Assembly: GCA_046596195.1 (NCBI GenBank)
Contig: JBKJNA010000122.1
Location: 1-61,554, forward strand
Direction: 5' to 3'
DNA: 61,554 nt
DNA from: Acidimicrobiales bacterium
GTDB lineage: Bacteria; Actinomycetota; Acidimicrobiia; Acidimicrobiales; GCA-2861595
The stretch's first letter is position 1; the number at the start of each line of letters is the position of its first letter. Of the stretch, positions 2,384-61,554 are shown piece by piece. The position numbers and the translations under genes are program-made. The notes under the pieces were generated by a model, which saw only the letters and a list, made by a program, of their open reading frames with translations, ran no database searches and was not told the origin of the DNA.

Positions 2384-2394
2384 CGGGAAACGAC

Positions 2395-3231: not shown

Positions 3232-3237
3232 CCGGCA

Positions 3238-3516: not shown

Positions 3517-3518
3517 CG

Positions 3519-7551: not shown

Positions 7552-7579
7552 GCGGGCGACTGGTGAGGGGGCAACTGCG

Positions 7580-7984: not shown

Positions 7985-7995
7985 GTCGGTAGACG

Positions 7996-8888: not shown

Positions 8889-8900
8889 AAAGGTCTGTAC

Positions 8901-9452
<552 letters not shown>

Positions 9453-10123: not shown

Positions 10124-10162
10124 TTCGTCGGTCGTCCTCTCTCCGCCAGCAGGAGCAGGTGC

Positions 10163-12136: not shown

Positions 12137-12158
12137 TGCAGGCGATGGCGGTGACACT

Positions 12159-12902
12159 GTGAAGCGCAACAAGGAGGAGATCGGGCGTATGCGCCGGGCC
12201 GGCCGGGTGGTGGCCGAGATGCACGAGCGCACCCGCCAGGCGGCCCGCCCGGGCGCCACCACCGCCGATCTCGATCGGGTGGCCCGCGAGGTCCTGGAGC
12301 GGCGCAACGCCCGTTCGAACTTCCTCAACTACCACGGCTTCCCGGCCGTCATCTGCACGTCGCCCAACGACATGATCGTGCACGGGATCCCCGGCTCCTA
12401 CGTCCTGCAGGAGGGTGACATCCTCTCGATCGACTGCGGCGCGATCATCGAGGGCTATCACGCGGATGCCGCCTTCACCATGCCGATCGGCGATGTGGGC
12501 CCGGAGGCGTTGAAGCTCATCGCCACCACCGAGGAGAGCCTGCGGGCGGGCATCGCCACCATGATCGACGGCAACCGCCTGAGCGACATCGGCCACGCCG
12601 TGCAGACGGTGGCCGAGGCGGGCGGCTACTCGGTGGTGCGGGAGTACGTGGGCCACGCCATCGGCACCGCCATGCACGAGGAGCCCCAGGTGCCCAATTA
12701 CGGGCCGCCGGGCAAGGGGCCGAAGCTGCGGGTAGGCATGGTGTTCGCCGTCGAGCCGATGGTGAACCTGGGCGGCGCCGGCACCAGGGTGCTCGACGAC
12801 AACTGGAGCGTGGTGACGGCCGATGGCAGCCTGTCGGCCCACGCCGAGCACACCATCGCCATCCTCGACGACGGGCCCGAGGTCCTCACCGTCCTCGACT
12901 GA
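12159..12902 (+). CDS. map: Type I methionine aminopeptidase
   Basis: ORF track, 247 aa, with ...[14 protein letters not shown]...[22 protein letters not shown]...HAEHTIAI.... Confidence 0.96.
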
Positions 12903-12934
12903 GAGGTTGGGGAGGTCGCCGCAGGCGAGCGTGC

Positions 12935-12976
12935 GGGCCGGACCGCCTGGGCCGGACCGCCTGGGCCGGACCGCCC
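12935..12976. repeat. Tandem 14-bp repeat, 3 copies (GGGCCGGACCGCCT)
   Basis: Copies at 12935-12948 and 12949-12962 are identical; the third copy (12963-12976) ends in C instead of T. It lies in the map-infA spacer. Confidence 0.9.
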
Positions 12977-12998
12977 GGCGGCGCCAGCGCAGTTCCTG

Positions 12999-13033
12999 AG
13001 CGATCTGTGCCCGGTTACCGGATACAGATCGCT
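12999..13033. repeat. Extended imperfect palindrome/hairpin in map-infA spacer
   Basis: AGCGATCTGT (12999-13008) pairs with ACAGATCGCT (13024-13033). There is also an inner CCGGT/ACCGG pairing. No T-run follows. Confidence 0.6.
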
Positions 13034-13204
13034 TCGGAATCCCTGCGCTCACGGCCGTCCCTCGGTCCCCGGTCGGAGGGTGCGGGTGGGCGGGTTTCTT
13101 CTTGCCGGGCGCATAAGCTACGCTTGACGTTCGGCCCGAGTCCTGTTGGCAGGTTCAGCGCGGGGCGCGCCGGAGAAGCACGAGTTTCGCAACGAGGAGT
13201 TCAT

Positions 13205-13429
13205 CTGCCCAAGCCCAAAGAAGACGCGATCGTGCTCGAAGGCACGGTCATCGAGCCGCTGCCGAACGCCATGTTCAAGGTGGAGCTCGAGAACGGCCAC
13301 AAGGTGCTGGCTCACAGTTCCGGCAAGATGCGCATGCACCGCATCCGCATCCTCCCCGGCGATCGCGTGCAGGTGGAGATCACTCCCTACGACCTATCCC
13401 GCGGACGAATCACCTACAGGTACAAGTGA
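13205..13429 (+). CDS. infA: Translation initiation factor IF-1 (apparent CTG start)
   Basis: Sequence ...[73 protein letters not shown]. There is no in-frame ATG/GTG/TTG near the conserved N-terminus. The CTG at 13205 lies 5 nt after GAGGAG (13194-13199). Confidence 0.8.
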
Positions 13430-13542
13430 TGAAAGTACGACCGAGCGTCAAGACCATGTGTGAGAAGTGCAAGGTGATCCGCCGTCACGGCCGGGTCATG
13501 GTGATCTGCACCAACCTCCGCCACAAGCAGCGACAGGGCTAG
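13429..13542 (+). CDS. rpmJ: 50S ribosomal protein L36 (zinc-binding form)
   Basis: Translated by hand because it is below the ORF-track size cutoff: [37 protein letters not shown], stop TAG at 13540-13542. The ATG shares one nt with the infA TGA. Confidence 0.92.
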
Positions 13543-13550
13543 GAGCGCCA

Positions 13551-13928
13551 GTGGCACGAATCGCCGGAGTCGACATCCCGCGGGAGAAGCGGCTCGAGAT
13601 CTCGCTCACCTACATCTTCGGGGTGGGTCGCACCACGGCCAAGAAGGTGTGCGCCGAGACCGGGATGAACCTCGACACCCGCGTGCGCGACCTCACCGAC
13701 GAGGAGGTGGCGCGCCTGCGCAACTGGATCGACGCCAACCTCAAGGTCGAGGGCGACCTGCGGCGCGACATCCAGCAGGACATCAAGCGCAAGATGGAGA
13801 TCGGCTCCTACCAGGGCATCCGGCACCGCCGCGGCCTGCCCGTGCGGGGCCAGCGCACCCATACCAACGCCCGTACACGAAAGGGCCCGAAGAAGACCGT
13901 GGCCGGGAAGAAGAAGGTGCGCAAGTAA
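13551..13928 (+). CDS. rpsM: 30S ribosomal protein S13
   Basis: GTG at 13551 in the frame of ORF 13467-13928: [26 protein letters not shown]...[13 protein letters not shown]. Confidence 0.96.
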
Positions 13929-14327
13929 ATGGCAAAGCCCAAGCCTGGAGGCCGGCGTCCCCGCCGCCGCGAGCGCAAGAACGTCGCCTTCGGCGTCGCC
14001 CACATCAAGAGCTCGTTCAACAACACGATCGTCTCTATCAGTGACATGGAGGGCAACATCATCGCCTGGGCGTCCGCCGGAAACGTCGGCTTCAAGGGCT
14101 CCCGCAAGTCGACGCCCTTCGCCGCCCAGCTGGCTGCCGAGGCGTGCGCCCGCCGTGCCATGGAGCACGGCATGCGCAAGGTCGACGTGTTGGTGAAGGG
14201 CCCCGGGTCAGGCCGGGAGACGGCCATCCGGTCGCTCCAGCAGACCGGCCTCGAGGTCTCCGGCATCAAGGACGTCACGCCCATCCCGCACAACGGCTGC
14301 CGCCCCAAGAAGCGGCGCCGGGTCTAA
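13929..14327 (+). CDS. rpsK: 30S ribosomal protein S11
   Basis: ORF track, 132 aa, with ...[20 protein letters not shown]...[14 protein letters not shown].... Confidence 0.97.
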
Positions 14328-14345
14328 AGGGAAGAGAACAGAGAC

Positions 14346-14972
14346 ATGGCTCGTTACACCGGTCCCGTCTGCCGCCTGTGCCGGCGGGAGAAGATGAAGC
14401 TCTTCCTCAAGGGCCCCAAGTGCGACACGATGAAGTGTCCCATCGAGCGCCGCCCCTACCCCCCGGGTGAGCACGGGCGCGACCGCATGCGCCAGGGCTC
14501 GGAGTACCTGGGCCAGCTGCGCGAGAAGCAGAAGGCCCGCCGCATCTACGGCGTCCTCGAGAAGCAGTTCGCCAACCTCTACGTGGAAGCCACCCGCATG
14601 TCGGGCATCACGGGCGAGAACCTGCTCCGGATGTTGGAGCTGCGCCTCGACAATGTGGTGTTCCGGGCCGGGTGGGGCTCCAGCCGCAGCCAGTCCCGCC
14701 AGTTCGTACGCCACGGCCACGTGCTCGTCAACGGCAAGCGGGTCGACATCCCGAGCTACCGGGTGAAGAAGGGTGACACGGTGGCGCTGAAGGCGAAGTC
14801 CCGCGAGATGATCGTGATCCGCCACAACGTCGACACCCTCGACCGCCAGGTGCCGCCGTGGCTGGAGGCAGGCGACGGCGGCTTCGAGGTCGCCGTGCGC
14901 GATCTGCCCCTGCGCGAGCACATCGACGTCCCGGTCCGTGAGCAGCTGATCGTGGAGCTGTACTCGAAGTAG
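14346..14972 (+). CDS. rpsD: 30S ribosomal protein S4
   Basis: ORF track, 208 aa: [26 protein letters not shown]...[13 protein letters not shown]. Confidence 0.97.
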
Positions 14973-15060
14973 TCAGTGCCCGGGCCGGCCGCAGTCGGCG
15001 CCGGGGTCATCGCAACAGCACGCCGAGGAGCGAGGGCTCCGACGCCAAAGGAGTTCCCCT

Positions 15061-16005
15061 GTGTTGATCATCCAGCGCCCAACCGTCGAGGCGTTGTCCG
15101 AAGAGGACGCCAACCGCCAGTCGTTCGCCATCGGGCCCTTGGAGCCGGGCTTCGGCCACACCATCGGCAACTCGCTGCGCCGCACGCTGCTGTCGGCCAT
15201 CCCCGGCGCAGCCGCCACCCAGATCCGCTTCGACGACGCCCTCCACGAGTTCACCACCCTGCCGGGCGTGAAGGAGGACGTCACCGACCTCATCCTGAAC
15301 CTGAAGGACCTGGTCCTGCGGGTCGACGGCGACGAGGACGTCACCCTGCGCATCGACGTTCGGGGCCCCGCCTCTGTCACCGCCCGGGACATCCAGCCGG
15401 CCAACGACGTCGAGGTCCTCAACCCCGACCTGCACATCGCCACGCTGAACTCCAAGGGCCGCCTGGCCCTCGACATCTTCGTGGAGAAGGGCCGGGGCTA
15501 CGTCTCGGCCGACAAGAACAAGCGGTCGGCCACCATCGGCGTGCTGCCGGTCGACTCGATCTTCTCACCGGTCCGCCGGGTCGCCTTCACCATCGAGCCG
15601 ACCCGGGTGGAGCAGTCCACCAACTTCGACCGCCTGGTGCTCGACATCGAGACCGACGGCTCCATCTCCCCCAGGGAGGCGCTGGCATCGGCCGGGGAAA
15701 CCCTGCGGTCGCTGGTGGGCCTGGTGGCCGAGATGAGCGACAGCCCCCAGGGCCTCGAGCTGGGCGACGTGAGCGCGGCCAGCACCGGGTCGCCCGACCT
15801 CGACCTGCCGATCGAGGACCTCGACCTGTCCGAGCGTCCCCGCAACTGCCTCAAGCGGGCCCAGGTCAACACGGTCGGCGAACTGGTCCTGAAGACGGTC
15901 GACGACCTGCTGGCCATCACCAACTTCGGGCAGAAGTCGCTCGACGAAGTGCTCGTGAAGCTCGACGAGCGGGGCCTGGCCCTGCGCACCAAGGGCGGGG
16001 AGTAG
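15061..16005 (+). CDS. rpoA: DNA-directed RNA polymerase subunit alpha
   Basis: ORF track, 314 aa, with ...[27 protein letters not shown]...; the C-terminal domain contains ...[21 protein letters not shown].... Confidence 0.97.
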
Positions 16006-16009
16006 CCGT

Positions 16010-16369
16010 ATGGGCGTGCCCGGGACACCGAAGAAGGGCCGCCGCCTCGGCGGCAGCGCCGCCCACCAGAAGGCCATGCTCGGCAACCTGGTGGCATCGC
16101 TGATCGCGGCCGAGGCCGTGGTGACCACCGAGGCCAAGGCCAAGCAGCTGCGGCCCGTGGCCGAGAAGGTGATTACCAAGGCAAAGAAGGGCGGCGTGCA
16201 CCGTCACCGCCAGGTCGTGTCGTTCATCCGTGACAAGGACATGGCCCACAAGCTGTTCGAGGAGATCGGCCCCCGCTACGAGGACCGCCCGGGTGGCTAC
16301 ACCCGCATCCTCAAGCTGGGCCCCCGCCACGGGGACAATGCCCCCATGGCCCGCATCGAACTGGTGTGA
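16010..16369 (+). CDS. rplQ: 50S ribosomal protein L17
   Basis: ORF track, 119 aa, with ...[20 protein letters not shown]...[25 protein letters not shown]. Confidence 0.96.
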
Positions 16370-17250
16370 GTTTGTTCGATCAGGAGTCGGCGGACATCGG
16401 TCCGCCGGCGCCGGTCGAGCAGGAGGCGCCGCCGCCGGTCGAGGGCGCGGCTGTACAGCAATCGCCGCCGCCCCGGGCCGGCCCCACCACGCGGGTACGC
16501 CTCACGGTGGCCTACGACGGCAGCGGGTTCCGGGGCTTCGCCCCCAACCTGGGCGTGCGCACGGTGGCCGGCGACATGGCCGGCGCCACCGGGCGCGTCC
16601 TCGGCGCCGAGGTGTCGCTCACCTGCGCCGGCCGCACCGACGCCGGTGTGCACGCCTGGGGCCAGGTGGTGCACTTCGACGTGCCGGGCGAGCCGGACCT
16701 CGTCGCCCTCCAGCGCTCGCTGAACAAGATGCTGGGCCCCGCCGTGGTGGTGCGCGACGCGGCCATCGCGGCCGAGGGCTTCGACGCCCGCCACTCGGCC
16801 ACCGGCCGCCGCTACCGGTACACGGTGCTGAACCGGGTCCTTCCCGACCCGTTCCTGGCGTCCACCACCTGGCACGTGGACGACCCCCTCGACCTCGGCT
16901 CGATGACGCTGGCGTGCGATCCGCTCATCGGTGAGCACGACTGGTCGTCGTTCTGCAAGCGCCCGCCCGGCCCCGACCCCGAGCGCGGCCCCCGGTCGAT
17001 GGTGCGGGTGGTGCGGGAGGCTGCGTGGACGGACCTGGGTGAAGGCGTCCTGCGCTTCGAGATCGAGGCGTCGGCCTTCTGCCACCAGATGGTGCGGTCG
17101 CTGGTGGGCACCCTGGTGGCGGTGGGCCGGGGGAAGGTGCGGGCGGGCGACATCGGCGCCCTGATCCGCTCCCGCGACCGAGCCGAGGCAAGCGAGCCGG
17201 CGCCGCCCCACGGCCTGTGCCTGTGGGAGGTCACGTACGGCGGGAGTTGA
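16366..17250 (+). CDS. truA: tRNA pseudouridine(38-40) synthase TruA
   Basis: ORF track, 294 aa, with ...[15 protein letters not shown]...[18 protein letters not shown]...[11 protein letters not shown].... The N-terminal ~40 aa are Pro-rich, so the start is uncertain. Confidence 0.9.
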
Positions 17251-50815: not shown

Positions 50816-51763
50816 TCAGGGGCGGCGGGCGGTGATCAGCCAGCAGGCGGAGCCGAACAGGACGCCCTCGGGCGTCTCGTGGGCCTCAAGCACGGCCCGC
50901 AGCCGGGCGAGGGCCGTCTTCCTGGCGTCGACGTCGAGTCCACCCAGCAGGTCCCTGGCCAGTCCCTGGGTGCTCACCAGGGCGTAGGCGGCCGCCGCAT
51001 CGGGACCGAAGCTCACCGGCTCGCTGCGCTCGTCGAGGGTGACGTCGACGAAGCCGGCCTCCCCGAGAATGCTGCGCACGTGGGCCTCGCCGGCCAGGCC
51101 GAAGGCGCCCGGGGCGTCGGCCGGTCGCTCGGGCAGGGTGCGTCCCAGGGCGAGGGCGCCGGCCACCTCGGTCATCCACTCGTTGCGCGCCACGTCCCGC
51201 CAGGCGGCGAGGGCGAGGCGGCCACCGGGTCGGAGGGCCTTGGCCACGTTGGTGAAGGCGTGCACCGGGTGGCCGAAGTACATGGCCCCGAAGCGGCTGA
51301 TGGCCACGTCGAACGAGCCCGGGTCGAAGGCGGCGGTGGCCGCATCGCCCTGGTGAAAGGCGAGGTTGGGGAGGCCCTCGGCCCGGGCCAGCGTCTCGGC
51401 CCGTCGCACCGTGGCGGCCGACAGGTCGACGCCCAGCACCGATCCGGCGCCGATGGCCCTGGCGGCGGAGCGGGAGGACAGGCCCGACCCGCAGCCGACG
51501 TCGAGCACCCGGTCACCGCCCTCCAGACCGGCCGCCTCGAGGAGCGCCCTGTCATAGCCCGCCGCCAGTTGCTCGAGGGCGCTCTCGTACTCGAGGGAGT
51601 GGAACATCGACAGGTCGCGCGACACGGCGTCGTGCGACACCCCGAGCCGATCGGCCATGGCGCCGAGCGGGCCCGGCTGGTCACGCACGAGCTCCAGGAG
51701 CGTCCGCCTGTCGCCTGCGGCGAGGGCGACCAGGGCCTGGTCGAGCAGCTGGGGACCCCTCAC
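50816..51763 (-). CDS. Class I SAM-dependent methyltransferase with N-terminal wHTH-like segment
   Basis: ORF track, 315 aa. SAM motif VLDVGCGSGL. Also ...FDVAISRFGAMYF...LRPGGRL.... The start is uncertain. Confidence 0.8.
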   Translation of the reverse strand: MRGPQLLDQALVALAAGDRRTLLELVRDQPGPLGAMADRLGVSHDAVSRDLSMFHSLEYESALEQLAAGYDRALLEAAGLEGGDRVLDVGCGSGLSSRSAARAIGAGSVLGVDLSAATVRRAETLARAEGLPNLAFHQGDAATAAFDPGSFDVAISRFGAMYFGHPVHAFTNVAKALRPGGRLALAAWRDVARNEWMTEVAGALALGRTLPERPADAPGAFGLAGEAHVRSILGEAGFVDVTLDERSEPVSFGPDAAAAYALVSTQGLARDLLGGLDVDARKTALARLRAVLEAHETPEGVLFGSACWLITARRP

Positions 51764-51917
51764 CGCCGGGGCGCGCCGGCGCGGGCGGGACAGGAGGAAG
51801 CTCGGTCAGACAGGTTGTCCATCGATCCTCGGAGTGCGACGAAGGGGGCGGGAGGATGGTCCCGGGAAGCAGTTCCCGGTTTCTACGGTGCCGGATGCCC
51901 GGAGGGACGGCCGGGGC

Positions 51918-53570
51918 ATGCGATCATCAACGACCCCCATGCCCCGGTCCGTCACCCTCCGCCCCTGGCAGAAGGCCGCCCTCGAGCGCTTCGCCGCCGC
52001 CACCTCGCCCGACTTCCTGGCCGTGGCCACGCCCGGCGCGGGCAAGACCACCTTCGCCCTCACCGCCGCCCGCCACGCACTGGCCTCGGACGTGAGCCGG
52101 CGCCTGCTTGTGGTCGTCCCCACCGCCCACCTGAAGGCCCAGTGGGCCCGTGCCGCCGCCGCCCTCGACCTGCACCTCGACCCGCAGTGGTCGGCGTCCG
52201 ACGGCTCCCTGCCCCACGACATGCACGGGGTGGTGACCACCTACCAGCAGGTCGCCGGCTGCGCGCCGCTCATCCGTTCCATGGCCTCTGGCGCCTTCGT
52301 GGTGTTCGACGAGGTGCACCACGCGGCCGACGACCGGGCGTGGGGCGACGCCGTGCGCACCGCCTTCGAGCCCGCCGCCCGCCGGCTGTCCCTGTCGGGT
52401 ACGCCCTTCCGCTCGGACACCCAGGCCATCCCCTTCGTGCGTTACCTGCACGAGGAGGCGGTGGCCGACTACGAGTACGGCTACGGCGACGCCCTGGCCG
52501 ACGGCGGGGTGGTGCGGCCCGTCTACTTCCCCCGCATCGACGGGATGATGGAGTGGAGCGCCCCCGACGGCAAGGTGCACGCCCACGCCTTCGACGACGC
52601 CCTCGGCACCGCTCTGGCCGGCCAGCGCCTGCGCACGGCCTACTCGCTCGAGGGCGAGTGGCTTCCCCACGTGCTGCGCCAGGCCCACACCCAGCTGCTG
52701 GCCATCCGGGAGCGCCAGGCCGACGCCGGCGGCCTGGTGATCGCCACCGACCAGGACCACGCCAAGGGCATCGCCCGCATGCTCCGTGACCGCATCGGCG
52801 TGCGGGCCGTAGTGGCGACGTCCGATGACCCGGACGCCTCCGACCACATCTCCCGCTACGTCACCGGCACCCAGCCGTGGATCGTGGCCGTGCGGATGGT
52901 GTCGGAGGGCGTCGACATCCCGCGCCTACGGGTCGGGGTGTTCGCCACCACGGTCACCACCGAACTGTTCTTCCGCCAGGCCGTCGGCCGCCTGGTGCGC
53001 TGGACCCGGGGCATGCGCGGCCAGAAGTCCTTCTTCTACATCCCCGACGAGCCGCGCCTGCGGGCCCGGGCCTTCGCCATCGCCGAGCAGCGCCGCCACT
53101 CGCTGCGTCACGAGGACCGTGACCCGATGGCTCCGATATTCGACACCGCCGCCGGCGAGGCGGGCGACGCCGACGCCCAACCCTCGCTGTTCGCCGTCAT
53201 CTCGGCCGTCCCCCTGGGCGACGGGCCCGTGCCCGACTGGGCCCACGACGACGATGCGCTGCTCGACCCGGCGGACGACGAGAGCCTCACCGTGGCATTG
53301 CCACCGCTCGCCCCGAGGGGCGGCGCGGCGGCGGCCTCCGACGGCCGCACCCGGCGCGAGCACAAAGAGCAGCTCCGGGACGCCAACGCAGCCAAGATGC
53401 GCCTCATCGCCCACCACACGGGCATGACCCACGCCAAGGTCAACGCCGAGCTGAACCGGGTCAGCGGCCTGCGCAAGATCAGCGAGGCCACCGTCGAGCA
53501 GCTGGAGAAGCGCCTCCACAAGGCGGAGGCGTGGCTACGTCAGGCGTCCGCCCGCCGGGTCCCCGGCTAG
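51918..53570 (+). CDS. Superfamily-2 DEAD/DEAH-box (ResIII/ERCC3-like) helicase with helical C-terminal tail
   Basis: ATG at 51918 in ORF 51657-53570. Motif I is ATPGAGKTTFAL, motif II FDEVHHAA, motif III SGTPFRSD, motif V SEGVDIPRL, motif VI RQAVGRLVRW. Confidence 0.85.
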   Translation: MRSSTTPMPRSVTLRPWQKAALERFAAATSPDFLAVATPGAGKTTFALTAARHALASDVSRRLLVVVPTAHLKAQWARAAAALDLHLDPQWSASDGSLPHDMHGVVTTYQQVAGCAPLIRSMASGAFVVFDEVHHAADDRAWGDAVRTAFEPAARRLSLSGTPFRSDTQAIPFVRYLHEEAVADYEYGYGDALADGGVVRPVYFPRIDGMMEWSAPDGKVHAHAFDDALGTALAGQRLRTAYSLEGEWLPHVLRQAHTQLLAIRERQADAGGLVIATDQDHAKGIARMLRDRIGVRAVVATSDDPDASDHISRYVTGTQPWIVAVRMVSEGVDIPRLRVGVFATTVTTELFFRQAVGRLVRWTRGMRGQKSFFYIPDEPRLRARAFAIAEQRRHSLRHEDRDPMAPIFDTAAGEAGDADAQPSLFAVISAVPLGDGPVPDWAHDDDALLDPADDESLTVALPPLAPRGGAAAASDGRTRREHKEQLRDANAAKMRLIAHHTGMTHAKVNAELNRVSGLRKISEATVEQLEKRLHKAEAWLRQASARRVPG

Positions 53571-53603: not shown

Positions 53604-53861
53604 ATGACTGGTAGAGTGTCACCAATGGTGACCACCATGGACTCGGTCGGCCGCATCGTCGTGCCAAAGCCCCTGCGTGATGCGTTAGGTCTCACCGCAG
53701 GCTCGACCGTGGACATCTCCCGCTACGGCGCCGGGCTGCAGCTGCTGGCTACGGGGCGTACCGCTCGGCTGGTCGACGAGTCCGGGGTGCTCGTCGCCAC
53801 CGGGGACACCGCCATTGACGACGACGTCGTCTTCGGCCTGATCGACGCAGGACGACGCTGA
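53604..53861 (+). CDS. AbrB/SpoVT-fold antitoxin (VapB-like)
   Basis: ORF track, 85 aa, with ...[26 protein letters not shown].... ATG at 53625 or 53637 are more likely starts. Confidence 0.75.
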
Positions 53862-54118
53862 CCGCAGTCGCCCTCGACACGAGCGTGGCGATTCCCCTGC
53901 TCGTGGCCACCCACAAATCCCACGATGCGGTTCGTCTGTGGTGGAACGGGCAGGAGGTGGCGCTGAGCGGACACGCGTTGGCCGAGACCTACTCCGTGCT
54001 CACCCGATTACCGGGTGACCTGCGGATGGCTCCGGCCGACGCCGCCCGCCTGCTTGCGGACCGGTTCGTCGAGCCCTTCCTCCTACGACACGGTTGGGGT
54101 TCGCGTCATCGTCGCTGA
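53858..54118 (+). pseudogene. PIN-domain (VapC-like) toxin, N-terminal half only
   Basis: Reads (L)[24 protein letters not shown]...[18 protein letters not shown].... The conserved LDTS Asp precedes the first ATG/GTG. The only upstream start-like codon is the CTG at 53858, which overlaps the antitoxin TGA. The ORF stops inside the first copy of a 14-bp tandem repeat, and the C-terminal half of a PIN domain is missing. Confidence 0.6.
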
Positions 54119-54181: not shown

Positions 54182-54846
54182 GTGTGGAGCCGTCTCGTCG
54201 ACGATCGTTGGTGCGACGCTAGGCCATACCTCCCACCTGAGATACTCTCATCGACGGAACTATCATCAGAGATAGTCTCTGAGGAGATCGCCGGTGAGAT
54301 CGCCGACTCCGACCTCCCTCGGCGCGACCTGTTCGCAGACGCGACCCCGGCCACATGGGAGGCGGCGATGCGGCTCCTGGCCGCCGGCGTCGAGGACCAG
54401 CTCCCGGCCATCGTCATCCTCGACGAGTTCCCGTACCTCGTCGCGGACGACCCGTCCCTGGAGGCGACGTTTCAGAAGCTGTGGGATCGGGTGCTGTCGA
54501 AGAAGCGGATCCTGTTGATCCTCGTGGGTTCAGACCTGGCGACGTTGGAGTCCCTCGACGACTACGACCGTGCGTTCCATCAACGGGGCACCCCTTTCGC
54601 CAAGAAGATCGCGTACGCCGGAACCATCAAGTGGTTCGACAACGCTCCGCTCGACCAGGCGACATGACCAGACTGATCGTCGGCCTCGGCGCGGTCGCCG
54701 GCGCCGACGAGCACACGCCGCTCGTCGCCGTCTCCCGCAGCGGAGCAACGGCGACCGGCACCGTCGTCCTCGGGCCCGACGAGCTGATCCAAGCGTGGAG
54801 GTGGTGCAGGCTCTTTCCAACCCGGCTCATCCTGCGAATGCGATGA
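54182..54846 (+). pseudogene. Remnant of an ATPase_2/DUF234-type ATP-binding protein (N-terminally truncated, internally deleted, frameshifted)
   Basis: ORF 54182-54667 has ...AIVILDEFPYLVADDPSLEATFQKLWDRVLSKKRILLILVGSDL... (Walker-B region) but no Walker A. The family's C-terminal signature ...TPLVAVSRSG...GPDELIQAWR continues in another frame (ORF 54355-54846). Confidence 0.5.
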
Positions 54847-54861
54847 TCGTCCCTCCGACGA

Positions 54862-55080
54862 GTGACCGGCGGTAAGCTCGGAATCGTGCGAGACGACAAG
54901 CTTTGGACAGCCGCCGAGCTGGAGCGACTGACGCCGGACGAGCGCCAACGAGTCTTCAACGCGGGCATCGTCACGGACCTCGATCAACTCTCGCCAGAGT
55001 TTCTTGATCGCGTCAGAGTGAAAGGGAGGGCCTTGCTCGCGGAGCGTGGCTTGGGCGAACCCCAAGCCGATGGCGGCTGA
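54862..55080 (+). CDS. Small hypothetical protein (candidate antitoxin-like partner)
   Basis: ORF track, 72 aa; GTG at 54886 is an alternative start. Codon usage is mixed with lower G+C (ctt, ttt, aga, aaa). It overlaps the next ORF by 11 nt. Confidence 0.45.
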   Translation: MTGGKLGIVRDDKLWTAAELERLTPDERQRVFNAGIVTDLDQLSPEFLDRVRVKGRALLAERGLGEPQADGG

Positions 55081-55432
55081 ACGGCGGCTTGTCCGAGTAT
55101 CTCCCGCACTCTTCGATCAGCTCGACGAGCAGCTCGGAAGCGTTCGCGGCGAGGCTGGACAGCCCTCTACGACCGACTTCCTGGTCATTGACCTCCCCGC
55201 CATCGTCGAGCGCTTCGCTACAGACTTCGATGGGCTGCCCGAGTTCGTCGAGGGCGTCGGTGTGGCCAGAGTGCTGGTCGCGACTGGACGATTGGCTCGG
55301 GCCGTTGCCGTGTATGGGCTCCTCGTTTCCGACGACGCGGTTGAACTCATCGGCATCGAGCTCGATCTGACACCTGAGGCGTTTCGCCCGTGGTTCGAAC
55401 GTCCGCCGTCAGGTGTCTCCTTGTGGAGGTAG
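55070..55432 (+). CDS. Small hypothetical protein (candidate toxin-like partner)
   Basis: ATG at 55070 in ORF 55046-55432, 120 aa: MAAERRLVRVSPALFDQLDEQL...AVAVYGLLVSDDAVELIGIELD.... No family recognised with confidence. Confidence 0.45.
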   Translation: MAAERRLVRVSPALFDQLDEQLGSVRGEAGQPSTTDFLVIDLPAIVERFATDFDGLPEFVEGVGVARVLVATGRLARAVAVYGLLVSDDAVELIGIELDLTPEAFRPWFERPPSGVSLWR

Positions 55433-55473
55433 CGCAAGCTCTTTCGAACCCCCAGAACCCTGCATACAACCTG

Positions 55474-55765
55474 CTAAATCCCGAACGCGACCGAAAGGAC
55501 CTGAAACGCCGAGGTGGCTAGATCTCTTGGGGTGAGCACAACGTTATGGCCCGGTCGGCATGTTGCTGGCACGCCGCAGCTGCGCGTGCAGGCCTGCAAC
55601 AGGCTGGCGTTCGGATCTAGACCCTCTCGCTTCCATTCAAGCCAGAAGCCGGACTTGGAGAAGGGAGTGCACGGAGGTCCGCCGACGAGCAGGTCTGGCC
55701 GGGCGCCGCGTCGCAACCCAGCTGCACACGTTGATCCGCCCTCGACGGTCAGATGCTGCCTGGCT
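55474..55765 (-). pseudogene. Fragment of a DNA (cytosine-5)-methyltransferase (motif IV region only)
   Basis: Reads ...RPDLLVGGPPCTPFSKSGFWLEWKREGLDPNASLL.... This is the catalytic PC motif. An in-frame stop lies about 16 codons upstream, there is no motif I (FxGxG), and the sequence degenerates after about 35 aa. Confidence 0.55.
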
Positions 55766-55833
55766 CACGAAGGCGAGCGCACGACCCTGGAATGTACCTG
55801 TGGAGTGCCTGAACGCGGTTGTGGTGCAGGCGG

Positions 55834-56424
55834 TCAGGAGCGAGACGGCGCCGAGCGCCGGCGAGTCGGGGCGAGCGCCCGGTTGACGGCGACGATGTCG
55901 AGATACTCGGGGTCGAACCGGCCGCCGACCCACACGAGCAGCTCGTCGTGCTGGTCGTGGTCGGGATTGGCGAGCGCGGCGAGGAGGTTCTCGTAGCCCC
56001 AGGTGCCCCCGCAGTCCTCAGGCGGGCATGAGCGCTCGCCGGCGATGCAGGCCGGGTACGCCTTGCCGGTTTCGGCCTCGAGCACCTCCTCGACGTCGAT
56101 GTCGTGCTCCCAGCTGTCACCGAAGTCGTACTCGTAGCTGAACGTGGTCCCCTTGCCGGCGACGCTGTCGAGCCGTGTGCGGCGCTCGTCTTCGGGGGCA
56201 GGGCCCCATCCTTCGCCGTCGTCGGTGCCGTAGGTCACGCCGGCGATCTCGAACTGGTGGAGGTGGTAGCCCTGCCAGCCCATCGCCACCTGCACCACGC
56301 CGTGCAGGTCCGCCAGCGTTATGGACCCGGGCACCTGGAGCCGACGCCAGATGCTCGGCTCGACGCCTCGAAGGACGATCTTGAGCTGGTGGACCTTGGT
56401 GGTGGACGAACCAGAAGGGGCCAT
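55834..56424 (-). CDS. pRiA4b ORF-3-like family protein
   Basis: ATG at 56424 in ORF 55834-56475: ...VHQLKIVLRGVEPSIWRRLQVPGSITLADLHGVVQVAMGWQGYHLHQFEI...YEYDFGDSWEHDI...CPPEDCGG.... Confidence 0.75.
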   Translation of the reverse strand: MAPSGSSTTKVHQLKIVLRGVEPSIWRRLQVPGSITLADLHGVVQVAMGWQGYHLHQFEIAGVTYGTDDGEGWGPAPEDERRTRLDSVAGKGTTFSYEYDFGDSWEHDIDVEEVLEAETGKAYPACIAGERSCPPEDCGGTWGYENLLAALANPDHDQHDELLVWVGGRFDPEYLDIVAVNRALAPTRRRSAPSRS

Positions 56425-56689
56425 GGCGCTGAACGTAGCCGCCGCCGAAGGCTGGACGGGACCCTGGCGCAGCAAGCGTACGGTCCGGGCTGGAACTCAC
56501 CTCCGGGCGACCGCTCGAGTGGGCCACGAGCTGCGGGTGCTCCCGCCAGACTTGCTCGGCCGGCTCTCGGACGCGCTCGTGATCCGGCTCGCGCCCGGCC
56601 TGCCGACTCAGCCCGCGTGCAAGCCGTCCAACGGCGTGGTCCATCACCGACCCTCGCCGCCTCAACAAAGCGGCGGCGTCGCCCCCGGC

Positions 56690-57272
56690 GGGTAGGTGAC
56701 CCCAGTGCCGCCCGTCCGGCCCGGTGACCTCGAGCCTTCCGTCGGGCGCCAGCTTGGCGTGCCAACCCGGCATGTGCAGCACATGATGGTTGCCGCGTGC
56801 AGGCCAGCACGAGATTCTCGAGGTTGGTCTCCCCGCCGTGCTCCACGTGGTGGCCCTCGCACCACTGCGGCGGGCGGTCGCACCCGCTCACCCGGCAGTG
56901 GCGGTCCCTGATGACCAGGGCGTTCCACGGCGGGGCAGGGATGGTGCGGGTGGCGGTGCCGTAGTCGAGGATGGTCGAGCGGCCTGCCATGAGCACCCGG
57001 TGCACGGCAGAGTCGCACAGCAACTGTGACAGCGTGACCTGGTCGAGTGGGGTGGCGTCGATGGTCTCGCCGCCCCGACCGGCCTCCAGGTCCTCCAGGT
57101 CCACCACCACGTTCACATGGGGGCGGTGGCGGCCGCCCGGCCTGGTGGTCTGGTGGTCGAGGAAGAAGCGGGACAGGTCGACCAGGGCGTCGGCCCGGCG
57201 CTCGCCCGGGGAGCGCACTGGCTCGCCGTCGGTGTCGTCGCTCGAGGCCAGGCGCAAGGCGGTGGTCACCAC
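56690..57272 (-). pseudogene. DUF222/HNH endonuclease (REP13E12-like) remnant, 5'-truncated and frameshifted
   Basis: ORF 56319-57272 reads ...GERRADALVDL...HVNVVVDLEDL...VIRDRHCRVSGCDRPPQWCEGHHVEHGGETNLENLVLAC. The expected continuation ...RGNHHVLHMPGWHAKLAPDGRLEVTGPDGRHW is in another frame (ORF 56117-56782). The shift lies near 56800-56811. Most of the N-terminal DUF222 part is absent. Confidence 0.6.
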
Positions 57273-57274
57273 AT

Positions 57275-57332
57275 CGCCGGCGCCATGCCGGCCGCCGGCA
57301 CCGGCGCATCAGGCGCCGGCGATGGGAGCACG
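57275..57332 (+). repeat. 58-bp direct repeat, copy 1
   Basis: CGCCGGCGCCATGCCGGCCGCCGGCACCGGCGCATCAGGCGCCGGCGATGGGAGCACG matches 60607-60664 with 3 mismatches, in the same orientation. Confidence 0.9.
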
Positions 57333-57497
57333 AGTTTGATGTAGCGAGACGATCGAATGACACAGGTGTAGTTCAGGCAACTGGCGGCGGCGGCCGTGGC
57401 CTTCGCCCGGAGCCAAGCTTTGCGCAGGGTGCGTATAGTTTTATCCCGATTTCGTTATCTCTCGGCTAACACGCAATCTCGTGCGTAAACTGCGGCT

Positions 57498-59165
57498 GTG
57501 ACGCCAGGAGAGCTGGACGAACTCCTGCGAGGCGGCGAGACGCGCCTCGTCGAGCTCAAGGGTGACGCCAATGACGACCGTCTCGTGGAGGCCGTCGTCT
57601 GTCTCGCCAACGGCGACGGTGGGCGGCTGCTCCTCGGCGTCGAGGATAACGGGACTGTTGTCGGCGCTCGGCCCAGGCACGGCGACCACACGGACGGTGC
57701 GCGGCTCGCCGCCCTGGTGGCCAACAAGACCACGCCATCGGTAGCGGTCGACGTGGAGATCCTCGGTACACCGTCCGGGCCGGTGGTCGTCATCAACGTC
57801 CCGAAGGCAAGGACCCTTGTCGCGACGACGTCCGGGCTCTACGTGCGGCGTGCCATCGACGTCAACGGCAAGCCTCAGTGCGTTCCGATGCCGCCGAACG
57901 AGGTCACCGCCCGCGTGGCTCGCCTCGGTGCCCAGGACGTCTCGATGATCCCGCTGCCCGATCTCGGCGCCGATGACCTGGACCCGGCCGAACTGCGCCG
58001 CTTCCGTGACCTCGCCCGAGGCGGCGGCGACCCGGTCCTCGGCGAGCTGTCCGACCCCGACCTCCTCGCCGCCCTGGGTTTGCGCACCGCTTCTGGCGAG
58101 CTGACGCTCGGAGCGGTACTGCTCTTCGGGACCACGGCCGCCATCCGCCGGTTCGCACCGACACACGAGACGGCCTTCCAGGTGCTCGACGCCCTCGAGG
58201 TCCGGGTCAGCCGCATCGAGTGCGCACCCTTGCTGAAGTCCATGATCGACCTCGCTGACGCGATCAAGCCCTACAACCCGGAGGAGGAGATCGAAGAAGG
58301 CCCGTTCCGCCTTGGGGTGCCGGCCTATTCCGAAGTGGCCATCCGCGAGCTGCTCGCCAATGCCTTGGTCCATCGCGACTACGCCACCAACGGCCAGATT
58401 CGGGTCGCGATCGAAGACGAGACCCTGTCGATCACGAGCACCGGCGGCTTCCCGGAGGGAATCACCCTCGGCAACCTCCTCGCTGCGCCGCCACAGCCCC
58501 GCAATCCTCGGCTGGCGGACGCCTTCAAGCGGGCGGGCCTCGCCGAACGCACCGGCCGTGGGGTGAACCGGGTGTTCCGCAGCCAATTGGCCCTGGGTCG
58601 GCCGCAGCCGGACTACTCGCGCTCGACCGATTCGTGGGTCGAGGTTCGCCTCCGCTCCGCTCCTGGCGACAGCGAGCTGGCCGCCTTTGCCGCACAAGCC
58701 GAGCGAGAGGCGAGGCCGCTTTCCCTCCGGACCCTCCAGGTCCTGCACGAGGTCCGGGCCGAGCGGCGCATCACGTCCGCACGCACCGCCGAGGTACTTC
58801 AACTCTCGACGGACGAGGCCCGTGCCATCCTCAACGACCTCGTGGAGCGGGGCTACCTCGAAGCCCGGGGCGAGGGCAAAGGTCGGATCTACCACCTGAC
58901 AGCCAGCATGTACCGGAAGATGGGCGGCCCGGCCAGCTATGCACGCACAAGGGGTTTCGAAGACATCCAACAGCAGCAGATGGTGCTGACGTACGTCATG
59001 GAGCATGGCTCGACCACCCGCGCCGAAGTCGCCGAGCTGTGCCAACTCAACCCCGATCAGGCCACCCGGTTGCTCCGCCGCATGACTGACCGGGGCGCCC
59101 TGGAGATGACTGGCGCCCGGCGAACGGCCCGCTACCAACGCCCGACAGGAGCGGCCGATGCCTGA
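57498..59165 (+). CDS. AlbA_2 (Schlafen-type) DNA-binding domain / HATPase_c_4 / wHTH protein (often mis-annotated as RecG-like)
   Basis: ORF track, 555 aa (GTG start). N-terminus: ...GGETRLVELKGDAN...VCLANGDGGRLLLGVEDNGTVVG.... Middle: ...AIRELLANALVHRDY...RNPRLADAFKRAGLAERTGRGVNRV.... The C-terminus has two wHTH-like units. Confidence 0.8.
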   Translation: MTPGELDELLRGGETRLVELKGDANDDRLVEAVVCLANGDGGRLLLGVEDNGTVVGARPRHGDHTDGARLAALVANKTTPSVAVDVEILGTPSGPVVVINVPKARTLVATTSGLYVRRAIDVNGKPQCVPMPPNEVTARVARLGAQDVSMIPLPDLGADDLDPAELRRFRDLARGGGDPVLGELSDPDLLAALGLRTASGELTLGAVLLFGTTAAIRRFAPTHETAFQVLDALEVRVSRIECAPLLKSMIDLADAIKPYNPEEEIEEGPFRLGVPAYSEVAIRELLANALVHRDYATNGQIRVAIEDETLSITSTGGFPEGITLGNLLAAPPQPRNPRLADAFKRAGLAERTGRGVNRVFRSQLALGRPQPDYSRSTDSWVEVRLRSAPGDSELAAFAAQAEREARPLSLRTLQVLHEVRAERRITSARTAEVLQLSTDEARAILNDLVERGYLEARGEGKGRIYHLTASMYRKMGGPASYARTRGFEDIQQQQMVLTYVMEHGSTTRAEVAELCQLNPDQATRLLRRMTDRGALEMTGARRTARYQRPTGAADA

Positions 59166-59283
59166 TCCATCCCGACCCGTCCTGTATGCCGCCGCGCGCC
59201 CGCAGAAACTCACGAGGGTCAAGGACTGCGTCGTTTGCGCGCACTGCCCAGGATCGGTTCCCGATCTGAGCTGAGACCTGGTA

Positions 59284-60861
59284 TCAACGCACCTGATCGG
59301 CGGCAACGAAGGACGTCACGTCGTCCGCTACCGAGCCCGCCGGGAACGTCGCCACCGCGTCGGCCACGCCGGTGATTTCGTCGAGGAACGCTCCGTGGGC
59401 ACCCCGCGCCGGGTCCTCGGTCGTGCCTTCGACGAACACGACGGCGAAGCGCGCGGGCCGGCCGTCGGGCTTGCGCCGCAGGACCCGTCCCATGCGCTGG
59501 ATCATCTGCCTCTTGCTCCGGCTGGCCGCCAGGATGATCCCGAGATCGGCGGCGGGCACGTCGACGCCCTCGTCGAGCACTTGGGGAGCGGTAACGGCCC
59601 GGAGGTCGCCGCCCGCGTACCGGTCCAGCACCGACCGCCGAGCGCTCCTGTCCAGCGCCGAATGGACGGCCGCCGCCGACAGCCCCTCCGACCGAAGGAC
59701 CGCCGCCGCCTCCTCCGCCCCGGCGATGCTCTGCGTGAACACGATCGCACGGTCGGCGGCCCGCACGGCCGGCGCCAGCCGGGCCAGCGCTGCCGCCTTG
59801 GCCGGCGTCTCGGACAGGAGCCGGCGGCGGTCCTGCATCGCCCACAAATACTGCCGTGCCACCTTCGTTGCGCCGTCATCACCACCACTGCGCGCCAGGC
59901 GGGCCACCGCCTCCAGGAACAGCCCGATCGGCTCGGCCGGAACGAGATGGCTTGCCACCAGACGGGACCGGGCGGCCGACATCACCGTGGAGAGCTCGTC
60001 GTACTCGGCCCGCTCGTGGGGTTCGAACGCCACAGCCACCAGCGCAACCCGCACCCGGGCGATGACTCCATCGGCGATGGCGCGCCGGTACCCCAGCCGG
60101 AAGCAGGTGCCCCCGAAGTAGGGGTCGAGCCAGGTGAGATGTCCGTCATCGGCTCGGGCGTAGGTGGCGCTGAGGCCGAGCCGGCGCGGGAAGCGGGCCT
60201 CGAGGACCAGGCGATTGCCCTCGGAGCCGTACCGGTGGCACTCGTCCGCCACCAACAGCCCGCCTGGGCGGCGAGGCCTGAGATCGGCCTCCCGGGCCGA
60301 GTTCACCACGGCAACCAGCACGTCGACCCGACCGAGGCTCGCTGTATTGGCGTCCCCCAGCAGCCCGAGGCTGACCCCCGGCGCCAGTTTCGGGGCGAGC
60401 ACGCCGGCCCACTGGCGGAGCAACTCGGTGGTGGGAACCACCACGCATGCCTGGCCGCGTGCGGCGACCTCCTCCAGGACGGCCGCCACACCGACGATGG
60501 ACTTTCCGGCACCGGTGACGGCCTCCACGACGCCCCGCCGGCCCTGGCGGCGCCACGCCCCGAGGGCGTCGACCTGCCACACGTGCAGCGGTGGCATGGC
60601 GCCGAGCGCCGGCGCCACGCCGGCCGCCGGCACCGGCGCATCAGGCACCGGCGATGGGACCACGGCATGGGTGGTCGGCCACCACCGGGGCGGCTCGGCG
60701 CCGTCGTGGTGAAAGCGTCGCGGGAACGTGGTGAGGACGCGGCTCACGTCCCCGGCAGTGAGGGAAACCCGACCGGTCGAGCGGAGGGCGTCTCGCACCT
60801 CGACTGCCGTCCGGCCGGGCGCCGCCTCCAGGACGGCAGCCACCTCGTCGACACCACTCAC
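59284..60861 (-). CDS. SF2 DEAD/DEAH-box helicase (ResIII + Helicase_C) with N-terminal wHTH-like domain and Pro/Ala linker
   Basis: GTG at 60861 in ORF 59284-61080. Motif I is VTGAGKSIVG, motif II LVADECHRYGS, motif III LGLSATYAR, motif V LDEGVDVPAADL, motif VI QRMGRVLRR. The start lies 4 nt after the upstream ATPase stop. Confidence 0.85.
   Translation of the reverse strand: MSGVDEVAAVLEAAPGRTAVEVRDALRSTGRVSLTAGDVSRVLTTFPRRFHHDGAEPPRWWPTTHAVVPSPVPDAPVPAAGVAPALGAMPPLHVWQVDALGAWRRQGRRGVVEAVTGAGKSIVGVAAVLEEVAARGQACVVVPTTELLRQWAGVLAPKLAPGVSLGLLGDANTASLGRVDVLVAVVNSAREADLRPRRPGGLLVADECHRYGSEGNRLVLEARFPRRLGLSATYARADDGHLTWLDPYFGGTCFRLGYRRAIADGVIARVRVALVAVAFEPHERAEYDELSTVMSAARSRLVASHLVPAEPIGLFLEAVARLARSGGDDGATKVARQYLWAMQDRRRLLSETPAKAAALARLAPAVRAADRAIVFTQSIAGAEEAAAVLRSEGLSAAAVHSALDRSARRSVLDRYAGGDLRAVTAPQVLDEGVDVPAADLGIILAASRSKRQMIQRMGRVLRRKPDGRPARFAVVFVEGTTEDPARGAHGAFLDEITGVADAVATFPAGSVADDVTSFVAADQVR
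60607..60664 (+). repeat. 58-bp direct repeat, copy 2 (inside helicase linker-coding region)
   Basis: CGCCGGCGCCACGCCGGCCGCCGGCACCGGCGCATCAGGCACCGGCGATGGGACCACG. On the minus strand it encodes ...VVPSPVPDAPVPAAGVAPA.... Confidence 0.9.
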
Positions 60862-60865
60862 CTGA

Positions 60866-61554
60866 TCATGTTGCGGCGGCCTCCTCGCCACCACCGGGGC
60901 TACCGGCGCCGTCGGGCCCGGGATCGAGGTCGTTGTCCTCGGTGAAGTCCATGACAACCTCGCTGGCCACCAGGTCGGGTTGGTACGACGGGTCGATGTG
61001 GCGGATGTCCCACTCGGTGATCCATGCCCGCACGTACTGGCGCATCCGGTTGGACGGCAGGCGCTCGAGCCCTTCGACATCGGGCGGGTCCCAGCCGAAC
61101 GCCTCGCCGTGGACCTGGCGAAGCTTGGTGTAGGTGCGGTCCAGCGCGTCCCGGTCGGGCGGTTGGAGCTTGACCTGGTCGCGCTCCATGATGCGCATGC
61201 CCGCCTCGGCCGTCGTGGCCAGCAGGTCGTGCTCGGCGGTGCCCTTCATGCGCAGGCGCTTGGGGACGAGCTCGATGTCGTTCTTGCCGGCGAGCACCTG
61301 GGTCTCGAAGTCGTCGACGCTGGTGAGCACGGCGCACAGGGGCGCGCCCGGGTCCTCCCGATCGCCCCGCACCCATCGGGCCACCTCGCCGTAGGACTTG
61401 GCCCGCTGCAGGAACGAGTACCGCCCGATGAGCTCGACCTCGTCGAGGAGCACGACCCATCCCTCGTAGCCGGCGGCCCGGACGAGCCGGGGCACGAAGC
61501 GGAACCGCTGGAGGGCGAGGTCGCGCTCCTTGGCTGCCGCCAGCCGATAGGTGG
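60866..61554 (-). CDS. P-loop NTPase, C-terminal part (5' end beyond window); possibly BrxD/DUF2791-like
   Basis: The frame is open to the window edge: ...TYRLAAAKERDLALQRFRFVPRLVRAAGYEGWVVLLDEVELIGRYSFLQRAKSYGEVARW.... This includes a Walker-B-like VVLLDEVE. The gene is co-directional with, and 4 nt from, the helicase gene. The family assignment is from memory only. Confidence 0.6.
   Translation of the reverse strand, partial: TYRLAAAKERDLALQRFRFVPRLVRAAGYEGWVVLLDEVELIGRYSFLQRAKSYGEVARWVRGDREDPGAPLCAVLTSVDDFETQVLAGKNDIELVPKRLRMKGTAEHDLLATTAEAGMRIMERDQVKLQPPDRDALDRTYTKLRQVHGEAFGWDPPDVEGLERLPSNRMRQYVRAWITEWDIRHIDPSYQPDLVASEVVMDFTEDNDLDPGPDGAGSPGGGEEAAAT

Follow-up and report, generated by a model that had tools for sequence, protein, structure and literature searches.

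A candidate five-gene defence operon with two BrxD-like ATPases and an XPB-type helicase at the end of a stretch of Acidimicrobiales DNA

Introduction

Two described defence systems come closest to the locus treated here. In type-2 BREX/Pgl, BrxD is an ORC/Cdc6 AAA+ ATPase that is tightly linked to BrxHI and was proposed as its loader or activator, and BrxHI is a Ski2/Lhr-like helicase with an Lhr-type C-terminal domain (PMC12839542). Shango is composed of the TerB-like SngA, the ATPase SngB and the DEAD/DEAH helicase SngC, and its phage defence was shown experimentally (10.1101/2022.11.11.516204). In this paper we looked at a 61,554-nucleotide (nt) stretch of an Acidimicrobiales bacterium (contig JBKJNA010000122.1, assembly GCA_046596195.1), which at its end carries an incomplete ATPase gene directly upstream of a helicase gene. 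Comparison with close relatives shows them to be D and E, which close a five-gene operon, A-B-C-D-E. We read the operon, with moderate confidence, as a candidate restriction-like system against phages or other mobile DNA, with genes B, C and D as its core.

Defence systems in Actinomycetota and in the other phyla that carry this core are, to our knowledge, poorly charted.

Materials and Methods

The window is the whole stretch of 61,554 nt, and its end falls inside gene D. Relatives were collected by a scan with a helicase alignment, taking one genome per species, which gave 450 relatives, and 80 loci were kept. The five proteins were mapped onto these loci by tblastn and hidden Markov models (HMMs), and the flanking genes were taken from a crude open reading frame (ORF) caller. 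Co-occurrence was counted among the loci that have any of B, C or D and enough upstream sequence; locus L079, where a weak match to D lies far off and on the other strand, was left out of the counts. Two reference loci are used throughout the text: L001, from an Acidimicrobiales metagenome-assembled genome (MAG) with 90% helicase identity to the window, and L002, a metagenome contig of the Joint Genome Institute (JGI) with 95%. A second scan, of metagenomes, was made with an alignment of 12 sequences of divergent B and gave 80 contigs with a G+C of 36-70%.

Results

Operon structure and conservation

On the minus strand an ORF enters the window from beyond 61554 and ends with a TGA stop at 60868-60866, followed by four nucleotides (tcag) and by the GTG at 60861 that opens a helicase ORF of 525 codons, which closes at 59284. 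A reading of the sequence alone, made earlier and called here the sequence-only reading, had described a P-loop ATPase with the motif VVLLDEVE that ends 4 nt before the GTG of a helicase, and this can be read directly from the letters. The GTG is accepted as the start of gene E because the homologue P0002 (90% identical, 525 amino acids (aa)) begins its MSGVDEV at the same residue. A longer ORF of 598 aa for E, from the ATG at 61080 in the mechanical ORF list, was rejected, as it would overlap the ATPase gene by 215 nt.

In both L001 and L002 the genes A, B, C, D and E follow each other in that order on one strand, and the genes that lie beyond A are unrelated. In these two loci A is a protein of 616-618 aa with multiple DNA-binding domains, B (262-275 aa) has no annotation and a fold without a match, C (318 aa) is BrxD-like without a Walker A, D (427-431 aa) is a BrxD-like active AAA+ ATPase, and E (525-537 aa) is an XPB-type helicase. 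Positions 59299-61554 of the window are colinear with the DNA of L002 at 95% identity, and the ATPase fragment and the helicase of the window are D and E, the last two genes of A-B-C-D-E. From these relatives, at 90-95% identity, we infer that this genome also carries A, B and C as well as the 5' half of D.

The association of the five genes is close. Of the loci that could be judged, all 44 have D upstream of E, all 41 have C, all 39 have B, and 34 of 36 have A, the genes lying close together on one strand. The carriers are mostly MAGs of Acidimicrobiia and of other Actinomycetota. The identity to the L001 proteins is 70-83% for D, 61-78% for C, 54-71% for B, 47-69% for E and 31-45% for A. 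The flanks of ~45 loci, read for up to 10 kb, hold no conserved gene beyond A-E and are non-syntenic.

When the window was compared with two close relatives, the ratio of nonsynonymous to synonymous substitution rates (dN/dS) was 0.16-0.19 in the helicase gene E and 0.20-0.29 in the fragment of D; both are under purifying selection. The G+C of the final 8 kb of the window is 0.65-0.70, compared with 0.72-0.77 in the preceding 30 kb. Between 57000 and 61554 no promoter-like sites were found and the count of terminator-like sites was not above that of shuffled sequence; no tRNA genes were found near the island.

The ATPases C and D

Only the 3' part of gene D lies in the window (228 codons and the stop; 60866..61554, minus strand), and its 5' end, including the Walker A, is beyond 61554. 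The fragment is colinear with residues 199-424 of the 427-aa L001 protein at 89% identity. It matches Pfam BrxC_BrxD (PF10923, DUF2791) with 31.3 bits and 1.4e-7, above the gathering threshold of 22.2, and PADLOC BrxD with 2.7e-5, so that gene D encodes a BrxD-like (DUF2791, ORC/Cdc6-type) AAA+ ATPase. The Walker B of the window gene, VVLLDEVE (61433..61456, minus strand), is nearly invariant among 40 homologues, and in D both this motif and the Walker A, GGGFGSGKSH, are conserved. Full-length D matches BrxC_BrxD with 3.8e-20 (72.6 bits) and PADLOC BrxD with 7.6e-17, and the corresponding values for C are 1.7e-13 (50.7 bits) and 2.4e-10. Against the BrxD equivalog NCBIfam NF033438, which has a cut-off of 350 bits, full-length D scores 61, C 38.2 and the window fragment 23.1 bits. 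The similarity to SngB (9.8e-6 and 22.9 bits for D, also weak at ~1e-5 for C) is far below the BrxD match.

C is an inactive paralogue of D, since it is without a Walker A, its Walker B is degenerate (LVLELD) and it stands in register with D when the two are aligned. No relatives of C were found among PDB sequences. The NCBI name for both C and D is 'BREX system ATP-binding domain-containing protein'.

The helicase E

Gene E (59284..60861, minus strand) encodes a 525-aa XPB/Rad25-type superfamily 2 (SF2) helicase with an extra N-terminal domain, as judged from Pfam, PDB profiles and homologues. Its Pfam domains are DEAD, ResIII, ERCC3_RAD25_C (3.2e-9) and Helicase_C, and over residues 74-467 (~390 residues) it matches PDB profiles of Sulfolobus XPBII (9e-46) and Archaeoglobus XPB (5e-40). 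The closest homologues, P0001 and P0002, are 95% and 90% identical, and the family holds 1359 clusters at E values of 1e-10 or less.

The helicase motifs are well kept. Motif I (Walker A), AVTGAGKS, spans residues 114-121 (60499..60522, minus strand), with A114, V115, T116, G117, G119 and K120 invariant; motif II, ADECH, spans residues 205-209 (60235..60249, minus strand), with D206, E207, C208 and H209 invariant; and motif III together with a RED-like motif, SATYARADD, spans residues 231-239 (60145..60171, minus strand), with S231, A232, T233, R236 and D238 invariant. We take SATYARADD to occupy the place that the RED motif has in XPB. By its sequence E belongs to the XPB/Rad25 family, as both of its RecA domains show XPB-type similarity and it has this RED-type motif, in line with the ERCC3/ResIII type named in the sequence-only reading.

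E is far below the cut-offs of two equivalog models: it scores 72.8 bits against the bacterial XPB equivalog NCBIfam NF045503, under the cut-off of 610 bits, and 135.7 bits (2.3e-39) against dnd_restrict_1 (TIGR04095), under the equivalog-domain cut-off of 600 bits. The best PADLOC model is PbeA, at 2e-56 to 8e-56, and this match, like that to dnd_restrict_1, is confined to the helicase core. Matches to SngC (4.7e-4 to 2e-3) are much weaker than those to PbeA, and the match to BrxHI models is confined to the generic Helicase_C region (1.7e-9).

The N-terminal ~60 residues of E (60682..60861, minus strand) form a separate domain by conservation, with many invariant or near-invariant positions across residues 18-60, and a Pro/Ala-rich linker follows it up to about residue 90. 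No Pfam model matches this domain. By hhalign it weakly resembles the third of the winged helices in protein A (E value 0.016), which makes it a putative winged helix. The domain and the linker that had been noted earlier are thus both present, and the label of a winged helix-turn-helix (wHTH) given to the domain at that time leans on this weak match.

Among more distant relatives of E, some adjoin GmrSD, HNH, PLD, SNF2 and SF1-helicase/REase_MTES_1575 genes. On the Rhodococcus qingshengii plasmid pCP2 (L163, 1-11619) an 876-aa relative, which includes the N-terminal domain, stands next to a gene for DUF262 (GmrSD-N) and to a type I restriction-modification system that is complete; integrase and transposase genes are nearby, and this locus is a plasmid-borne defence island. 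On plasmid pACHL01 of Pseudarthrobacter chlorophenolicus A6 (L164, 8908-11880) a 990-aa protein that bears the name 'sigma-70 family RNA polymerase sigma factor' consists of two fused parts: residues 24-459 are an XPB-like helicase of the E clade (45% identity), and sigma-70 regions 2-4 follow. The same sigma-70 annotation is given to an E relative (H3) on a plasmid of Paenarthrobacter sp. YJN-5; the fusion itself was read only in L164. Such a fusion probably explains the JGI label 'RNA polymerase primary sigma factor' on some homologues of E.

Proteins A and B

Protein A has a sigma-70 region-4 helix-turn-helix, with profile matches to RpoS and RpoH at 2.5e-8. The AlphaFold model of A, a confident one with a predicted local distance difference test score (pLDDT) of 84, shows a helical N-terminal half, three tandem winged helices and a C-terminal beta-barrel. 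The N-terminal half carries what look like helix-hairpin-helix motifs (GIGP), and the barrel resembles plant B3 / EcoRII-N-type DNA-binding domains (Foldseek probability 0.97-0.99, E value about 0.1). No enzymatic domain was found in A, and its model suggests a protein built only of DNA-binding modules.

Protein B has no match in Pfam, NCBIfam, PADLOC or PDB sequences, and every named member of its family is called 'hypothetical protein'. The model, which is confident (pLDDT 90), has a long helical, coiled-coil hairpin at residues 7-71 and then an alpha/beta domain, and neither the PDB nor the viral predicted structures hold a significant structural match to it. The B family comprises at least 819 clusters at 50% identity (E value of 0.001 or less) among the 1.84 billion cluster representatives searched, and nearly all members are stand-alone proteins of ~260 aa. 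A PD-(D/E)xK nuclease was considered for B, with E88, D120 and D126-K127-K128 on an alpha-beta-beta-beta-alpha core, and it was rejected: D120, D126 and K127 are unconserved across the wider family, and Foldseek gave no nuclease match.

A second branch with an SNF2 helicase

The core B-C-D recurs in many phyla, and the metagenome contigs found with divergent B show it in another company. C follows B in 54 of 54 contigs and D in 40 of 40 that could be assessed. None of these contigs has A or the XPB-like E. In their place a small protein of 180-200 aa, named c4 here, comes after D in 21 of 26 contigs, and an SNF2 helicase comes next in 25 of the 26. An example of c4 is the conserved ~188-aa protein at 4425-4988 of L104, between D and the SNF2 helicase of this non-actinobacterial branch, with its like in 20 other loci. 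It has no match in Pfam, PADLOC or PDB sequences. The idea that c4 is the counterpart of A or of the N-terminal domain of E was dropped, since hhalign gave no match; nor could a relation to B be detected.

In PADLOC the SNF2 protein is matched best by ZorD (3e-71) and DpdE. In L104, the one full-length example checked, this protein ends in an Mrr_cat restriction-endonuclease domain (1.2e-23). Twelve further SNF2 proteins share the length of 738-744 aa, and two shorter ones that were checked are without the Mrr domain.

The reverse case is seen in Rhodococcus cerastii (L067, 11839-14070), where an A-like protein (HMM 7e-31) adjoins an XPB-like helicase and a 1651-aa SF1-helicase/REase_MTES_1575 protein stands in place of B-C-D. 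Since L067 has A and E without the core, it suggests that these two travel as a pair. The system is modular, because B-C-D occurs with c4 and an SNF2 helicase, and an A-like protein with an XPB-like helicase occurs without B-C-D: the core combines either with A and the XPB-like helicase or with c4 and an SNF2 helicase that can carry Mrr.

The genomic neighbourhood in the window

Convergent with E lies an intact gene for a 555-aa protein (57498..59165, plus strand) with a Schlafen-type AlbA_2 domain (Pfam SLFN_AlbA_2, 8e-13, 49.4 bits against a threshold of 25.3), an HATPase_c_4 domain (5e-16, 58.9 bits against 26) and a C-terminal wHTH (HTH_24, 7e-7). The stop codons of this gene and of E are separated by 118 nt. 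The sequence-only reading had given the protein two wHTH units; the ORF, both Pfam domains and the C-terminal unit stand, and the second wHTH is weaker. All five Pfam families named then (BrxC_BrxD, AlbA_2, HATPase_c_4, ResIII and Helicase_C) were found, with BrxC_BrxD, AlbA_2 and HATPase_c_4 above their gathering thresholds.

A look at the co-occurrence of the ATPase, the helicase and the AlbA_2 gene across genomes had also been proposed, and co-occurrence holds for the first two only. None of the other loci mapped has an AlbA_2 homologue close to the operon, and among 137 flanking proteins neither an AlbA_2 nor an HATPase_c_4 family is seen twice or more. L001 keeps the junction with this gene, but there the gene is cut to ~100 codons while A-E are intact. 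As it is absent from the other loci and truncated in L001, the AlbA_2 gene is an unrelated neighbour outside the operon.

At lower coordinates in the window, on the plus strand, there is a 637-aa SF2 helicase (51657-53570; ResIII, Helicase_C; PADLOC PbeA 5e-26) with a ~170-aa C-terminal extension and ~27% identity to E. It is followed on the same strand by an intact VapB/MazE-like antitoxin gene (53604-53861) and a PIN toxin gene truncated to 77 aa (53885-54118). Positions 54182-57363 are a patch of gene remnants with a lower G+C of 0.65, which holds an ORF of 161 aa with no assignment (54182-54667) and, on the minus strand, a C5-cytosine-methylase fragment of 80 aa (55474-55716), an intact PRiA4_ORF3 gene (55834-56475, 3.6e-68) and DUF222 fragments (56319-57272). 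Most neighbours had been called dead, which is right for the PIN, C5-methylase and DUF222 pieces but not for the VapB-like and PRiA4_ORF3 genes, both intact. Far from the island a SecY gene is found (10163-11455, plus strand; 1e-110 to solved SecY structures), and the small plus-strand genes around it, at about 100-17250, look like ribosomal-protein operons, of which only SecY was checked. With SecY and such genes in the same window, the terminal island lies in a core chromosomal neighbourhood.

Discussion

What would a unit of two BrxD-like ATPases, a helicase, a DNA-binding protein and a protein of new fold do in the cell? Our reading, which we hold to be somewhat probable, is that the operon restricts phages or other mobile DNA and that B-C-D is its core. 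It is based on the relation of C and D to the ATPases of two defence systems, BREX-2 and Shango, on the sister branch that can carry a restriction nuclease domain (Mrr), and on the lower G+C and the gene fragments at the end of the window. Other observations can be set beside these. The distribution of the operon is patchy and non-syntenic and crosses phyla, distant relatives of E stand among restriction genes, and the 137 nearest flanking proteins include PIN (5), Fic (4), AbiEii, PtuA, AriA (2), a type I methylase and PDC-S01.

Several points weigh against this reading. The window stops inside gene D. In 2 of 36 loci (L004 and L019) A is undetectable even by HMM, and both keep B-C-D-E; L019 is labelled as a Bifidobacterium breve MAG, an odd host for an operon centred in Acidimicrobiia, so that mis-binning is possible in this case. 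Many flanking genes are housekeeping genes (SufB, EF-G-like, catalase), and the signal of a defence island is therefore modest and descriptive. B was found neither in IMG/VR, nor in GenBank phages, nor on 72,556 PLSDB plasmids, so that mobile elements are not seen to carry the operon. In the actinobacterial form the search of A-E for a nuclease, a methylase or another effector domain found none. Repair and transcription, too, make use of XPB helicases and sigma-type domains, and the defence role of the family as a whole is one that we infer.

These last points lead to another explanation, in which the operon has a cellular role in DNA transactions, such as the processing of damage or of stalled complexes or a helicase-assisted transcription, with A and E under the control of the BrxD-like ATPases. 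Repair and promoter opening are the known tasks of XPB/Rad25 family members, a sigma-70 region 4 is present in A, and two plasmids of the Arthrobacter group encode an E relative with a sigma-70 annotation, of which the one that was read is a helicase fused to sigma regions 2-4. The missing nuclease in A-E, the many housekeeping flanks and the absence of B from the phages and plasmids searched would also agree with it. Yet a patchy and non-syntenic spread over phyla and over a G+C range of 36-70% fits such a role poorly, as does a core that pairs with an SNF2 helicase, which in one checked case bears the Mrr nuclease domain that is typical of restriction effectors. Defence proteins (BrxD, SngB and PbeA) are what C, D and E match most closely by profile, and E relatives are found among restriction genes. 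We regard the cellular role as possible but unlikely.

The other explanations attach the pair to something already described or to its neighbour. That it is the brxD-brxHI pair which closes a type-2 BREX/Pgl locus at its 3' end had been proposed on the grounds of the published gene order; the ATPase does match Pfam BrxC_BrxD and PADLOC BrxD, and BrxD-BrxHI has the same ATPase-helicase order (PMC12839542). But the genes upstream of D in L001, in L002 and in ~45 other loci are C, B and A, with no Pgl or BrxC gene among them, D falls far short of the BrxD equivalog and the helicase is XPB-like, which leaves this assignment with hardly any chance of being correct. It is very improbable, too, that the pair belongs to the triad of TerB-N/TerB-C, ATPase and helicase now called Shango (SngABC), the second of the earlier proposals. 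The order of ATPase and then helicase is the same, and weak matches to SngB (D and C) and to SngC (E) exist; against it, A and B are without a TerB or SngA match, the SngB and SngC scores are marginal and far below those to BrxD and PbeA, and the operon has five genes. We give equally little credit to a three-component system in which the AlbA_2/HATPase_c_4 protein is the sensor of the ATPase-helicase pair: the gene is adjacent, convergent and intact in the window, and L001 has the same junction, but elsewhere no homologue stands beside the operon, no such family recurs in the flanks, and in L001 ~100 codons are left of it while A-E are intact. The third proposal of the sequence-only reading, an ATPase-helicase system not described before, came closest; the unit turned out to be five genes, and the AlbA_2 partner which it allowed for does not co-occur.

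If the operon is indeed a defence system, a mechanism can be suggested by analogy. C and D might form a hetero-oligomer, scaffolded by B, that at the cost of ATP loads an SF2 DNA translocase onto its target DNA or licenses it there, a step modelled on the ORC/Cdc6-type loaders and on BrxD-BrxHI of type-2 BREX. In the actinobacterial form the translocase would be E, of XPB type, and A would supply the DNA targeting; in other phyla c4 and the SNF2 helicase stand in for A and E. Where the SNF2 protein bears Mrr, the motor could cut the foreign DNA, and in the XPB branch it could block replication or packaging or pass the DNA to a host nuclease. The formation of a complex, the loading step and the inactivation of DNA in the form without a nuclease are all drawn from such parallels.

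A bolder version can be imagined, in which B-C-D, with one active and one inactive BrxD-like ORC/Cdc6 ATPase and a protein of new fold, is a phylum-spanning 'translocase-licensing' immune core, not recognised before, that arms interchangeable SF2 motors, A, derived from a sigma factor, reads promoter-like DNA or engages RNA polymerase, and the XPB motor, in a parallel to TFIIH, blocks foreign DNA without a nuclease of its own. The fusion of sigma regions with an E-clade helicase would give a Rosetta-stone link if the sigma-derived A targets the XPB motor. Taken as a whole, this version is speculative and has only a small chance of being right.

A confirmed defence role would add a new multi-gene family to the class of ATPase-plus-helicase systems that holds BrxD-BrxHI of BREX-2 and Shango. 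It would offer a case that can be dissected, with an active and an inactive BrxD-like protein, a partner (B) of new fold and helicase modules that are swapped in nature, and this modularity would make the idea of BrxD-type helicase loaders testable. It would also give names to thousands of proteins, in Actinomycetota and in other phyla, that are now called 'hypothetical' or 'BREX system ATP-binding domain-containing'.

How does the operon compare with the systems that are known? With type-2 (and type-6) BREX/Pgl it shares a BrxD-type ORC/Cdc6 AAA+ ATPase directly upstream of an SF2 helicase, as a linked pair. It differs in having no PglZ, PglX, PglW or BrxC: upstream of D none of PglZ, PglX, BrxC (PglY) or PglW was found in L001 or L002, and none is conserved in the ~45 loci. 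Two BrxD-like paralogues are present, one of them inactive, D is far under the equivalog cut-off for BrxD (61 against 350 bits), the helicase is XPB-type and not Ski2/Lhr-type, and A and B have no BREX counterpart. With Shango the operon has in common an ATPase, an SF2 helicase and a non-enzymatic partner, in the order of ATPase and then helicase (10.1101/2022.11.11.516204), as well as the weak similarity of D to SngB. It has five genes and not three, a helicase of another clade and no TerB; in A or B no match was found to TerB, TerB_N or TerB_C of Pfam (E value up to 1) or to SngA of PADLOC (E value up to 0.1), and the predicted models of A and B are other folds than TerB.

The helicase E shares its core and the RED-like motif past motif III with the XPB/Rad25 helicases (archaeal XPB-Bax1, bacterial XPB and XPB of TFIIH), but a small putative winged-helix domain replaces their N-terminal damage-recognition domain. 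It also has no Bax1-type nuclease partner; B is without a significant structural match in the PDB, which holds XPB-Bax1 complexes. Among PADLOC models E comes closest, in its helicase core, to PbeA/dnd_restrict_1, which does the restriction in phosphorothioation-based defence; E is without the N-terminal ~240 positions of that profile, and no dnd or pbe genes were found in the flanks of the operon. The likeness to ZorD of Zorya and to DpdE concerns the SNF2 helicase after B-C-D in the sister branch, not the branch of the window, and ZorABC and the Dpd genes are absent there. In PADLOC-DB v2.0.0 the genes of the operon match no single catalogued system, contrary to what a canonical, described system would give: no model fits A, B or c4, while C and D are weakly BrxD/SngB and E is partly PbeA. 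Our literature searches gave no description of an A-B-C-D-E operon. What is new in the system is two protein families, and what is of a known kind is its modules of a BrxD-type ATPase and an SF2 helicase.

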